Assembly (NCBI GenBank): GCA_965198225.1
Contig: CBDAOY010000009.1
Location: 160,001-224,000, forward strand
From: Terriglobia bacterium
Lineage (GTDB): Bacteria > Acidobacteriota > Terriglobia > 20CM-2-55-15
Direction of reading: 5' to 3'
Length of the DNA stretch: 64,000 nt
Of this stretch, positions 6,951 through 10,861 are shown one piece after another; position 1 is the first letter of the stretch, and the number at the start of each line of letters is the position of its first letter. The translations under genes and the position numbers were made by a program. The notes beneath the pieces are model-generated. The model did not search any database, was not told the origin of the DNA, and saw nothing but the letters and a program-made list of their open reading frames with translations.

Positions 6951-7790
6951 TCAACCGATGAAAAACTTCAGAGAGCGGACCAGATAGGGCTTCAAGTCGC
7001 GACGCTCGACGATCGCATCGAGCATACCGTGCTCAAGAAGAAACTCGCTCCGCTGAAAACCCTCCGGCAGCGTCTGTCGGATCGTCTGCTCGATGACGCG
7101 GGGACCGGCAAAGCCGATCAAAGCCTTCGGTTCGGCAATGTTGATATCGCCCAACATCGCATAGCTTGCCGAAACACCGCCAGTGGTCGGGTCGGTCAGG
7201 ACGGAAACGTACGGCAGGCGCGCTTCGGCCAGTCGCGCGAGCGCGCCAGAGATCTTGGCCATCTGCATCAGGCTCAGCGCTCCCTCCTGCATGCGGGCGC
7301 CGCCGGAGCATGAAACGATGACCAGGGCCGCGCGGTTCGTCAGGGCGTGTTCGATGGCGCGCGTAATCTTCTCTCCCACCACCGACCCCATTGACCCTCC
7401 GATGAACTCGTACGCCATCGCCGCGATCACCGCGGGGTGCCCTCCGAGAGTTCCGACTCCTGTAACGACGGCCTCCCTGGTCCCGGACCTGCCGGCCAGG
7501 GCGGCCAGCGTCTTGTCGTATTCCTTGGCGGCCTTGAACTCAAGCGGATCGGTGGCATAGAGCCCCGCGTCCATCTCTCTCCATTCGCCGTCGAAAAGTA
7601 GGTGCAGTCGATCGAAGGCGCCGATCTTGTAGTGGTGGTGGCACTTCGGACAGACCTGAAGGTTGGCGTCGATGTCCTTCTTCCAGACCGGCTCCTTGCA
7701 ACTGACGCACTTCTGCCAGAGGCCTTCCGGGATGACCTTCCGCTCCTGGTCGACTTCCATCGACTTCTTTTCCCGCTTGAACCAAGCCAT
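6951..7790 (-). CDS. accD: Acetyl-CoA carboxylase carboxyltransferase beta subunit
   Basis: Zn finger CVSC...CPKC, FIGGSMGSVVGEKI, SGGARMQEG, FAGPRVIEQT. Confidence 0.97.
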   Translation of the reverse strand: MAWFKREKKSMEVDQERKVIPEGLWQKCVSCKEPVWKKDIDANLQVCPKCHHHYKIGAFDRLHLLFDGEWREMDAGLYATDPLEFKAAKEYDKTLAALAGRSGTREAVVTGVGTLGGHPAVIAAMAYEFIGGSMGSVVGEKITRAIEHALTNRAALVIVSCSGGARMQEGALSLMQMAKISGALARLAEARLPYVSVLTDPTTGGVSASYAMLGDINIAEPKALIGFAGPRVIEQTIRQTLPEGFQRSEFLLEHGMLDAIVERRDLKPYLVRSLKFFIG

Positions 7791-7830
7791 AGATTATTGA
7801 TTATACAAAGGATACTTGAAATCTTGAAGA

Positions 7831-8025
7831 AGCTATCAGCTGTTCAGCCTTCGGCGGTCAGCCCTCAGCGGTTCAGCTGCCGGAGGAAGTTCCTGAGAGT
7901 GCCTTTGATTTCGGTCATCTCTGCCAAACATACTATCGTGAAGGCCGGGCGGTGAGGAGAAGCGGAGACCTTCGAAACGCAATGTGATTTCTCTGCTGAA
8001 AGCGGACAGCCGAGGACTGAAAGCT
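7831..8025 (-). pseudogene. Heptamer-repeat-flanked remnant, possibly of a four-helix-bundle (IVP-like) gene
   Basis: TCAGC-type repeats at 7831-7878 and GCTGA-type at 7995-8025 flank a minus-strand segment encoding ...LAEMTEIKGTLRNFLRQLNR*. Confidence 0.4.
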
Positions 8026-8027
8026 CG

Positions 8028-9464
8028 CTACGGGCCGAAGACTTCCTCCGCTGCGCGACGCAAGCGGAGGGCCGTCTTATCGCGTCCAAGGACGACCATG
8101 ACGTCGAATATGCCTGGGGCGACCGCCTTGCCAGTGAGCGATACACGGGAGGCGTTGATCAACAAGCCTGCTTTGACGCCCAGCTCGCCGGCCAGCGAGC
8201 GCAGTGCCGTCTCGGTGGTTTCCAGATCGAATGGTTCCAGCGCCTCGAGCCGGCGCGCCAGCGCCGGCAAATACTCCGCGAGTTTCGAATCCTTCATGAA
8301 CCGCTCCACAGCCGGGGGCTCGTACTCCACGCGCTCGCCCGTGTACGTCGTTGCTGCCGCCGCCACATCGTTCAACGACCGAAACCGTGGACGGATCAGG
8401 CCAATCATCGCGGAAAACCAGTCAGCATCCGTGCCCGCGAACCGGTCCTCCCAGAGCCCGAGATCGTCCATCATCGGGCGGAGGCGTTTGACGAGGTCGT
8501 CGAGCGGGAGCGCTTTGATGTATCGACCGTTGAACCAGGACAGCTTCTCGGCATCGAACACAGCGTTCGCCTTGGAGATGCCCCCGAGCGAGAACGCCTC
8601 GATAAGTTCTTCACGGTTGAAGACCTCCTGATCGGTCCCCGATGACCAACCAAGCAGGACGAGAAAATTACGGAAGGCTTCGGGAAGGATGCCCTGATCG
8701 CGGTATGCGAGTACCGACGTCGCTCCGTGCCGCTTGCTGAGCCTGCTCTTGTCCGGACCCAGGATCAGAGGAACATGGACGAACTCCGGCGACGACACCT
8801 CGAAAGCGTCGTAGAGCAGGAGTTGCTTCGGTGTGTTGGAAATATGGTCTGCACCACGCAGGACATGAGTGATCTTCATGTCGATGTCGTCTGCGACGAC
8901 ACTCAGGTGGTAGGTCGGATGACCGTCGGAGCGAAGAAGGATGAAGTCCTCGATTTCGTCGAATCCCCGCTCGATGGGGCCGAACACCGCGTCGTCGAAC
9001 CGAACCGGCTGGTCGGGCACCTTGAGGCGGACCGCGGCCGGCTCCCCTTTTTCCAGTCTGCTGCGAATTTCCCCTTCTCCCAGCGAGAGACACGCTCGAT
9101 CGTACTTCCACTCCACTTTCGTCGAAGAGTCCCGGGCGCGTTTGGCGGCGAGCGAAGCGGGCGAACAGAAGCAGTAGTAAGCCTGTTGCTGGCGGATCAA
9201 CCGCATCGCCCTGTCCCGGTAGCCGGCGACGCGGGTGGACTGCAGGTAGGGGCCTTCGTCCCAGTCCAGCCCCATCCACTTCATGGCCTCGAATATCCCC
9301 TCGACCATGTCTGCGCTGGATCGCTCGACATCGGTATCTTCGATGCGCAAAACGAAGACGCCCCCCATCTTCTGCGCAAAAAGCCAGTTGAAGAGCGCTG
9401 TTCGAGCGCCGCCGACGTGCAGATAGCCGGTAGGAGACGGGGCAAAGCGGACGCGAACAGTCAT
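8028..9464 (-). CDS. gltX: Glutamate--tRNA ligase
   Basis: RFAPSPTGYLHVG (HIGH), LRIEDTD, RGADHISNT, RLSKR (KMSKS-type). Confidence 0.97.
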   Translation of the reverse strand: MTVRVRFAPSPTGYLHVGGARTALFNWLFAQKMGGVFVLRIEDTDVERSSADMVEGIFEAMKWMGLDWDEGPYLQSTRVAGYRDRAMRLIRQQQAYYCFCSPASLAAKRARDSSTKVEWKYDRACLSLGEGEIRSRLEKGEPAAVRLKVPDQPVRFDDAVFGPIERGFDEIEDFILLRSDGHPTYHLSVVADDIDMKITHVLRGADHISNTPKQLLLYDAFEVSSPEFVHVPLILGPDKSRLSKRHGATSVLAYRDQGILPEAFRNFLVLLGWSSGTDQEVFNREELIEAFSLGGISKANAVFDAEKLSWFNGRYIKALPLDDLVKRLRPMMDDLGLWEDRFAGTDADWFSAMIGLIRPRFRSLNDVAAAATTYTGERVEYEPPAVERFMKDSKLAEYLPALARRLEALEPFDLETTETALRSLAGELGVKAGLLINASRVSLTGKAVAPGIFDVMVVLGRDKTALRLRRAAEEVFGP

Positions 9465-9766
9465 CTATGTACTTCGACGGGTTTCTTGAGAAGGTGGGGG
9501 ACCCGCGCCAGGACATCGACAAGTTGCTCTTCGGTCAGATGTTGTCCGGCGATGTGCTCCTGATACTCGGGGAAATGGGTATTCGGGGTCACCATCGCGG
9601 GCGCCCCTCCCGGTATCGATCGGGCGAATACGCCCAGCGCTTCCCGGGAAGGAGGTTCCTCCAGAAGCAGTCGCGCTTCGAAGGGGATCTCCTGTTGCGA
9701 AAGCCACGCTTTCGTATCGTCGCACGGCCCTCAGCCCGGCTTGGTGTAAAGAATCAGGTTCGCCAT
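9461..9766 (-). CDS. Probable selenoprotein of the ArsC/Spx (thioredoxin-fold) family, UxxC, 101 aa
   Basis: MANLILYTKPG-TGA-GPCDDTKAWLSQQEIPFE...ARVPHLLKKPVEVHR*; GAGG RBS; frame open after the TGA (9731-9733); stop overlaps the gltX ATG. Confidence 0.85.
9698..9714 (-). promoter_or_regulatory. Candidate bacterial SECIS hairpin
   Basis: Perfect stem CGAAAGC-GUG-GCUUUCG starting 16 nt after the UGA, with a G-first apical loop. Confidence 0.55.
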
Positions 9767-9827
9767 AGTCCTCGCCTTTGGGGTTGGATGATTCATGAAG
9801 AAAACCGATGCCTTCCTCAGCGTCTTC

Positions 9828-10445
9828 CTATTGAGCGGCAAAACAATAGAACAAGCCGTCACCGCCCGAAGCCCGCAACTGTTCCTGGCTGCATCCACGG
9901 CTGTCATGGGCCGAGTTCCAGGCCGCGCGGTCATGATGACCGATCCTGGCTTTTCCGTCACCGCTGCTCGTCCAGTTGCCGCAGGTCATGTCCTCGCCAG
10001 CCGAGAAGGCCGTTCCGTCCGGCTGCGAGCCGGTCAGGACATCGTGCCGGTTCGGAACGTATCCGCTACCGGGGATCCTTCTGCCTCTCTCGTCGATCAC
10101 GGTCATGACGGTAAACCGATGTCCCATCCCGTGGAGCTCCTCGACGTTATTACCGATAAGGGCGCCCAGAGCGTTGTGCCATGGGCCTGAGCCGATACGG
10201 TCGCGAGCATTCACCGCGTTCGGGCCCTGCGTGCTGAGGTAGGCATGCCATGTGCGGTCGCCCGCACCCGCTCCGGCGGCCAGGCTCTGACAGAGCGCGT
10301 CGGCTCCGTCCAGACCACCCAGATCGGCTCCTTCGCCGGAGCCTGCACTTGTGACGAAAAAGGTCATCGAATTTTGGGCCAGGGCCGGCGCGGAAACCAG
10401 CAGGCTGAGGCAAATCACACCGAAAATAGGCAGCGCTCTACTCAT
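9828..10445 (-). CDS. Secreted endostatin/C-type-lectin-like protein
   Basis: Signal peptide; GADLGGLDGADALCQSLA, ARDRIG.GPW, HDVLTGS, LFYCFA. Confidence 0.75.
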   Translation of the reverse strand: MSRALPIFGVICLSLLVSAPALAQNSMTFFVTSAGSGEGADLGGLDGADALCQSLAAGAGAGDRTWHAYLSTQGPNAVNARDRIGSGPWHNALGALIGNNVEELHGMGHRFTVMTVIDERGRRIPGSGYVPNRHDVLTGSQPDGTAFSAGEDMTCGNWTSSGDGKARIGHHDRAAWNSAHDSRGCSQEQLRASGGDGLFYCFAAQ

Positions 10446-10861
10446 GTCGGTTCTCCTTCTCGTGACAATCTTGGTGATCCAAAGACTTCCAGATTAACGG
10501 AGGTTTTTCATCAGACCACTATCGCAGTTCGGGTGTCAATCGAAAGCGGGTCTGGTGAAAGAGTCGGCCGAGGGTGCAATGAAGAAGGTCGTTTGTTAAC
10601 GCCGCGCAACCCAGGTCGTCATTTAATTAGAGTAGCTGGAGGGGGCTGAAGTGACGTTTTGGGGCAAAAGATCCAAGCACTATGATGACAACTCAGACTG
10701 CAAGTCATGCCATCAATCTTGAGAGCCCCGGAACGCTTCTGAACGGTATGGACGCGCCGTTCGAGAGTGCCGCCGCGCCCGCCGCGATACTTCTTGACCG
10801 TAGGTTCTCCAGCATGGGAACGTGAAGGGCACTCAATCAGGCAAACCTGCAGGAGAACACC

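Follow-up and report, generated by a model that had tools for sequence, protein, structure and literature searches.

The short reading frame that overlaps the start of gltX in the DNA studied here is interrupted at its twelfth codon by TGA. The question is whether this codon is read as selenocysteine (Sec) and, if so, whether translation of gltX is coupled to selenium supply, as the original prediction, made from the sequence alone, had suggested. The DNA is a stretch of 64,000 nucleotides (nt), referred to as the window, from a Terriglobia bacterium (assembly GCA_965198225.1, here G000), and corresponds to positions 160001–224000 of contig C9 (CBDAOY010000009.1). The explanation that we consider probable as a whole is that the frame belongs to a family of selenoproteins with the fold of ArsC and Spx, and that in G000 the gene was broken and joined to gltX by a rearrangement.

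The frame and gltX are both on the minus strand of the window. The frame (9461..9766) comprises 101 codons and a stop, and its codons 1–97 are homologous to relatives of 121–125 residues. The product begins with MANLILYTKPG-U-GPC from an ATG at 9766–9764, which is preceded by a 61-nt spacer (9767..9827) with a purine-rich ribosome-binding stretch at 9779–9769. The in-frame TGA (9731..9733), given here in its Sec reading, falls in the column of the first CxxC cysteine of Cys-containing homologues, and the TGC of codon 15 (9722..9724) takes the position of the resolving Cys in the UxxC motif. A further 89 sense codons lead to the terminal stop, also TGA (9463–9461), which forms an ATGA overlap (9461..9464) with the start codon of gltX (ATG, 9464–9462). 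The elements described in the original prediction, which left the strand unnamed, are all present. The gltX gene (8028..9464) encodes a full-length glutamyl-tRNA synthetase (GluRS) of 478 amino acids, with Pfam matches to tRNA-synt_1c (E 8.4e-98) and to the anticodon-binding domain.

Upstream of the selenoprotein gene, the flank is conserved over ~835 nt with that of L015, a copy on contig C2 of genome G020. An alternative in-frame ATG occurs ten codons upstream in the window (MNHPTPKART-MANL..., 9795–9826, minus strand) and in copy L019. In L015, L018 and L025, a stop just upstream of the equivalent Met separates it from the upstream ATG; hence the shorter start is the conserved one and is favoured.

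Evidence for selenocysteine at codon 12

The complete set of genes for Sec incorporation was found in G000. Profile scores were 372.6 bits for selD, 537.5 bits for selA and 387.3 bits for selB, all above the curated cut-offs, and ARAGORN located a tRNA-Sec with the anticodon tca (selC) at C8:573867–573964. The selD gene (C9:419380–420303, minus strand, outside the window) has one in-frame TGA inside a full-length match, and SelD of G000 is therefore probably a selenoprotein itself.

A six-frame search of 40 related genomes revealed 13 matched places in 11 genomes, and 11 of the 13 contain exactly one in-frame TGA. Ten of these are ArsC-like copies, 33–91% identical, with the TGA at the same column (G-U-G-[PS]-C), and the eleventh is a different protein, a glutaredoxin-like UxxC protein of 78 residues. 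The two TGA-free places encode Cys forms, one with CGKS and the other with CSTC; in L024 and L026, a Cys stands at the Sec column. Among 34 genomes of the taxonomic family, 14 places were matched at E ≤ 1e-8, 11 with TGA and three as Cys forms. Thus, the in-frame UGA is conserved among orthologues, is not peculiar to this assembly, and is aligned with a Cys of homologues. That the TGA coincides precisely with the first CxxC cysteine of a protein with the ArsC/Spx fold, as had been proposed, was borne out by profile, alignment and structure match.

The codon was also found in contigs of sequencing runs from other studies. The TGA region was covered with zero differences by X2 record 12, X3 record 20, X7 record 29 and X10 record 3, and these four records are the basis for stating that the TGA is unchanged; no other letter occurs at 9731–9733 among the matches listed.

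The alternative that the TGA is a true stop, with the region either decayed or non-coding or serving as an 11-codon leader peptide, and with no selenoprotein in the family at all, is consistent with the way in which the family has been annotated. Gene callers stop at the TGA. Thirteen database proteins were found (seven were read individually), and 11 of the 13 cover only 39–51% of the query; these are therefore calls that start after the TGA. Furthermore, one database protein, P0003 (123 residues, 91% identical to the window product), has Arg in place of Sec (KPGRGPC). Against a true stop, all ten ArsC-like copies, down to 33% identity, have an open frame both before and after the TGA, and the family conserves the first 11 residues together with the U-x-x-C motif; strand 1, at the N-terminus, is needed for the fold. 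The full Sec machinery in the genome and the compensatory changes in the hairpin described below argue in the same direction. A true stop is thus very improbable, and the TGA is very probably read as Sec, as far as can be judged from comparative sequence data. This reading restores the active site to a family that gene callers cut short.

The Arg codon of P0003 is one base from TGA. The protein is represented by one member, on one 3089-nt contig, and the substitution is either an error of sequencing or an inactivating variant of natural origin.

A SECIS-like hairpin downstream of the UGA

A hairpin resembling a bacterial selenocysteine insertion sequence (SECIS, bSECIS in bacteria) is located at 9698..9714 (minus strand), within codons 18–23 (T-K-A-W-L-S). 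It begins 16 nt 3' of the UGA and has a perfect 7-bp stem and the loop GUG. The original prediction had described a perfect hairpin with a G-first loop, which is present, but its span of 16–32 nt past the UGA is off by one. The spacing criteria for bSECIS elements are those of the literature, and the hairpin agrees with them in being a stem-loop shortly 3' of the UGA with a G in the apical loop.

The stem is paired in 63/63 cells across nine distinct sequences. Four of the seven pairs are invariant, one shows a one-sided change, and two are changed on both sides, i.e. are compensatory. In one compensatory event, a Lys-to-Arg codon change in the 5' arm is accompanied by a synonymous CTT-to-CTC change of a Leu codon in the 3' arm. 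After shuffling of alignment columns, 22 of 500 shuffles reached the observed hairpin values, and controls slid along the alignment paired in only 22–56% of cells. Synonymous variation is also restricted in this region: codons 13 and 20–24 use one or two codons in the ten sequences, as compared with three for the invariant residues L35, P38, P39, A48 and G53.

Three observations weigh against the hairpin as a decoding signal. It folds with an unremarkable energy (z −0.30), equalled by 65 of 200 shuffles. A permissive Rfam scan of 9400–9850 found no SECIS family, the sole match being one at chance level to MEG3_2 (E 2.5). Finally, the hairpin overlaps the conserved peptide KAWLS, and part of its conservation is thus at the protein level. 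Taken with the TGA conservation and the Sec machinery, the pairing data nevertheless favour, as part of the explanation that we hold to be probable, a genuine selenoprotein family whose UGA would be decoded by SelB through the hairpin 16 nt downstream.

Truncation of the gene and its junction with gltX

Close relatives encode proteins of 123 residues, and the more distant group 121–125. Nucleotide homology of the window to six relatives ends at gene position 287–291, i.e. at codon 97, directly past the KKPV motif, and the close relatives run 26 residues further; the earlier suspicion that the protein is shortened after KKPV was therefore justified. In the family search, the other ten Sec-type copies cover the model from position 1 or 2 to position 120–123, and the G000 copy is the only short one among the 11.

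The breakpoint is located at 9475..9477, where homology to the selenoprotein gene of the relatives ends and homology to the gltX leader begins. On the gltX side, the window aligns with the native gltX leader of three same-genus relatives (G001, G002 and G003) from position −9. A native leader of 12 nt (9465..9476, minus strand) is retained, with a Shine-Dalgarno (SD)-like GAAG that corresponds to GGAG in G002 and G003 and to GAGG in G001. The window reads CGAAGTACATAG-ATGA and the relatives CGGAGT/CGAGGT..AT[AC]G-ATGA; the ATGA at the gltX start is thus also native in all three. Codons 98–101 (EVHR) and the stop derive from the former gltX leader. Downstream of gltX, synteny (including an accD-like gene at 6951–7790) is maintained with all four of the relatives' loci that hold downstream DNA.

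The missing 3' part of the gene (residues 96–123, 28 codons) was found in G000 on another contig, at C6:437278–437361. It is 93% identical to the C-terminus of L015 and is followed by the same stop and downstream sequence. An in-frame TAG TGA precedes the remnant, which hence cannot belong to a longer reading frame. No other copy of the gene was detected by tblastn in G000, a genome of nine contigs that is 97% complete. The gene is therefore cut after codon 97 and joined to gltX, with the other breakpoint 11 nt before the gltX ATG. About five bases (CCYGT) are present at both junctions.

These data suggest the following course of events. An illegitimate rearrangement, whether an inversion or some other reciprocal exchange, would have disrupted a gene for a small ArsC/Spx-fold selenoprotein of 121–125 residues, with one breakpoint after codon 97 of this gene and the other 11 nt ahead of the gltX ATG. 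The gene's 5' portion, three quarters of its length with the promoter side, the Sec codon and the SECIS, would now lead straight into gltX, and the last 28 codons would persist as a dead remnant on C6. The new frame would run for four codons into gltX's own ATGA context and stop there, which would create the overlap. The 101-residue product would probably be unstable or inactive, and the apparent selenium coupling of gltX would be a by-product of the rearrangement.

With the two pieces of the gene on separate contigs, the data are compatible with either of the two types of rearrangement named. Comparison of the C6 flank with the regions upstream of gltX in the relatives gave only weak, scattered local alignments. 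The 736-codon reading frame adjoining the remnant has no homologue near the relatives' gltX, and tblastx with their gltX upstream regions gave no match in that part of C6. The sole sign that the C6 flank was formerly upstream of gltX is an abutting match of 8 nt: C6 ends with CCTAGTGA, and G002 has CCTAGGGA directly before CGGAGT.

A dispersed repeat of ~70 nt is present just downstream of the L015 gene (about 1900–1971) and of the C6 remnant (region C6:437278–437464). It has hundreds of matches, 75–100% identical, on all large contigs of G000 and looks like a repetitive extragenic palindrome (REP) or a miniature inverted-repeat transposable element (MITE); the breakpoint is outside the repeat. 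In addition, the database relative P0009 (118 residues) follows the family as far as ...KKPVLTDGGRI, beyond which its sequence is unrelated. It is a second case of a disrupted C-terminus in this small gene, due to a frameshift or a rearrangement.

Authenticity of the junction

As G000 is an assembly of nine contigs with the gene pieces on different contigs, and as a variant resembling L015 co-occurs in the same runs and could mislead an assembler, the join might be chimeric and the gene intact in the real genome. The join is, however, bridged with zero differences by Logan contigs from runs of three other studies, namely X3 record 17 (8900–9572, within a contig of 1932 nt), X2 record 11 and X7 record 27 (9438–9572 in each case). 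A contig from an RNA library, X10 record 1 (9324–9524), also bridges the join, with DNA carry-over possible in that library. Since independent contigs of three studies cross the junction without a difference, it is not a misassembly.

The co-occurring variant is a separate genotype. It differs from the window at 9520, 9521, 9530, 9541 and 9542 (codons 83, 82, 79, 76 and 75), exactly where L015 does and with the L015 states, and its alignment, on short contigs, ends at 9476. It would fit a co-occurring relative with an intact gene. Together with the failure of tblastn to find a further gene copy in the nearly complete genome, these findings largely refute an assembly artefact already, and we regard it as hardly credible.

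G020, which belongs to another genus, contains two copies of the gene, on contigs C2 (L015) and C45 (L025). Together with its upstream flank, the C2 copy shares 92.6% DNA identity with the window across 1132 nt, far closer than the same-genus genomes, and matches the second genotype of the reads. Contig C2 may be mis-binned and originate from a close relative of G000.

Fate of the truncated product

The protein encoded in the window extends four residues past position 97 and does not include the complete fold of a four-stranded sheet and a C-terminal helix; strand 4 and the C-terminal helix of the thioredoxin-type fold are missing. Fragments of thioredoxin-type folds are generally unstable on their own. 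In an AlphaFold2 (AF2) run without an alignment, the truncated product gave a predicted local distance difference test score (pLDDT) of 51, a value that is not comparable with that of the alignment-based model of a relative (see below) and speaks neither for nor against folding. Three replacements on the G000 branch, D76H, L83V and N91H, all fall in the last 22 codons, at positions invariant in six other close relatives. On balance, the 101-residue product is more likely than not impaired or inactive.

Several observations weigh against a loss of function. The fragment is undegraded, its start, Sec codon, hairpin and frame all being intact. It is covered by contigs from the RNA library and could well be translated. 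At least three studies contain the rearranged genotype, which is a persisting lineage, not a one-off. The G000 branch carries five synonymous and three non-synonymous changes, a pattern that may be non-neutral and reflect a still functional product, although the changes are too few to decide between purifying and relaxed selection. As a control for the intactness of the fragment, the untranslatable 3' remnant was compared with L015 and differs at 6 of 87 nt, versus 24 of 291 nt in the 5' part. The remnant is equally preserved, and hence the state of the fragment shows only that the break is recent.

An intact-looking Sec reading frame with a good hairpin can thus be a fragment, which in this case became apparent only through comparison with relatives.

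Linkage to gltX and selenium supply

Adjacency of the gene with gltX was found in none of the five relatives searched. The distance between the two is 484 kb in the closed genome of G002 and 264 kb in that of G003, and in G001, G012 and G020 they are on different contigs. An ATGA stop/start overlap is a general feature of translationally coupled gene pairs in bacterial operons. The locus resembles such pairs in the four bases shared by the upstream stop and the downstream start, but differs from them in that the overlap was made by a rearrangement from gltX's native ATGA and is conserved in no relative. Because the adjacency arose by rearrangement and is absent in relatives, the link with gltX looks accidental, and the idea of a designed coupling to selenium is not supported.

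As everything upstream of position −11 of gltX has been replaced, the fragment probably supplies its promoter, and gltX is most likely transcribed from the promoter of the selenoprotein gene. A scan of 7800–10700 found no promoter-like site and two terminator-like sites versus 2.6 expected, and is uninformative on gltX transcription.

The same exchange leaves room for a different view, in which the 101-residue selenoprotein is functional, gltX is translated chiefly by ribosomes that have inserted Sec at codon 12, and GluRS is gated by selenium. The ATGA overlap is real, and a ribosome arriving at the end of the fragment could start anew at the gltX ATG. The fragment's reading frame, UGA and hairpin are intact, a contig from the RNA library bridges the junction, and the genotype persists in samples of three studies. 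In addition, gltX retains nothing of its former sequence beyond −11, and it has the weaker SD-like element GAAG in place of the GGAG of G002 and G003, which would make some dependence on upstream ribosomes conceivable. On the other side, the arrangement is an accident of one lineage that arose by breakage of the gene and is absent in all five relatives, and the product lacks strand 4 and the last helix and carries the three replacements at otherwise invariant positions. The gltX start is not masked by a stable fold (z +1.18, equalled by 179 of 200 shuffles; the minimum free energy structure makes up 0.6% of the ensemble), and gltX retains an SD-like GAAG and an ATG of its own. A second GluRS paralogue is present in G000, outside the window (C9:131075–130101; 47% identical over 325 residues). 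Sec is usually decoded with low efficiency, and gating of an essential synthetase in this way would be costly. A functional product with selenium-gated GluRS is therefore unlikely, and selenium-gated translation of gltX as such we likewise regard as improbable.

An accidental rearrangement could also have had consequences of its own, in that gltX, deprived of the promoter and leader it once had, with its SD weakened to GAAG and its start overlapped by a frame whose completion requires Sec at codon 12, would rely on Sec decoding for part of GluRS synthesis. This too seems improbable; if true, it would mean that selenium gates a housekeeping gene in nature, in a genotype that persists across the samples of several studies. 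Should the fragment still be translated, the locus would be a natural test of the dependence of a downstream essential gene on Sec-decoding ribosomes, and not a new kind of system.

Each of the relatives also carries two gltX-like genes. A further short GluRS-like match in G000, outside the window at C9:1035347–1035063 (34% identical over 95 residues), is possibly of the GluQ-RS type.

Protein family and fold

The full-length relative L015 matches Pfam ArsC (PF03960) with 34.3 bits, above the gathering cut-off of 24, and the truncated copy of the window scores 17.9 bits, below it. All ten members match Pfam ArsC and Glutaredoxin at E ≤ 0.01. A profile of the family, built with two Cys homologues among its sequences, matched solved chains of ArsC, YffB and Spx over the whole length (E 4.5e-27 to 6e-11), with the ArsC and Spx chains at E 4.5e-27 to 2e-18.

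The AF2 model of a full-length relative (pLDDT 85, predicted TM-score 0.75) shows a strand at 5–8, a helix at 13–24, a strand at 30–33, a helical insert, strands at 97–99 and 104–106, and a helix at 111–118. Its best structural match was Spx (TM 0.78, 25–27% identity), followed by proteins of the ArsC family, with TM values of 0.76–0.78 for Spx and ArsC.

No curated NCBIfam cut-off was reached by the present Terriglobia subfamily, with the pattern KPGUGPC...THFPEYQEHIAG. Against the Spx/MgsR models, L015 scored 50.7 versus a cut-off of 75.05 (TIGR01617) and 48.8 versus 123 (NF002459), and the window's copy scored 40.5 and 38.4, respectively, also below the cut-offs. The score for TIGR00014, the glutaredoxin-type arsenate reductase, was 31.4 versus a cut-off of 106.05. 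The Arg of the ERP motif, which we take to be part of the arsenate-binding triad, is replaced by Lys (K95) in all ten members. By the tests run, the family is thus neither an arsenate reductase nor Spx; it is best called a family of ArsC/Spx-fold UxxC redox proteins (Sec12-x-x-Cys15), putatively thiol-type oxidoreductases, a designation drawn from profile and model comparisons.

Among known systems, Spx of Bacillus subtilis, a CxxC redox-sensing regulator that binds RNA polymerase, has the CxxC at the same place, a similar length and the closest structure. Unlike Spx, the family has Sec in place of Cys, occurs in Acidobacteriota and not in Firmicutes, and scores below the Spx cut-offs. Glutaredoxin-coupled ArsC (E. 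coli R773) shares the fold, and the Sec takes the position of its N-terminal catalytic Cys, but the family differs from it in the second Cys (UxxC) and in the Lys for the ERP Arg. NF041106 (ArsC_rel_Se_1) is a model curated for ArsC-family (seleno)proteins with UxxC, and in this respect it resembles the present family. However, matches at E ≤ 0.01 were obtained for only three of the ten members (best 1.2e-5); there was none for the close relatives, and the window's copy was absent at E ≤ 0.1.

UxxC selenoproteins of ArsC type are already in print. They appear as 'ArsC-like' selenoproteins in the list of Zhang et al. 2006 (PMC1794560), as 'Arsenate reductase 2' (cd03032, UxxC) in that of Zhang & Gladyshev 2008 (PMC2398784), and as 'arsenate reductase-like protein' (COG1393, UxxC) in that of a 2022 review (PMC9312934). 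As described in those tables, they share with the present family the ArsC/Spx fold, Sec for the first Cys of CxxC and the existence of Cys homologues, and they too were predicted from an in-frame UGA and a bacterial SECIS. Compared by table description, not by sequence, the window's copy differs from them in being a truncated allele fused to gltX. The selenoprotein call is hence sound but ordinary.

Neighbouring genes

The neighbours of the gene in relatives are not conserved and the gene stands alone; they therefore give no functional hint. G002 has TPR-S and SnoaL-like genes at this place, and the locus of a distant family member, L041, has a MauE-like gene and a UGSC-family reading frame. 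The latter (L041:3187–3471, minus strand), ~320 nt downstream of the family member, encodes 94 residues and matches Pfam UGSC with E 1.4e-15. The GOS table includes UGSC-containing proteins among the selenoprotein families, and the L041 frame may be another call truncated at a TGA.

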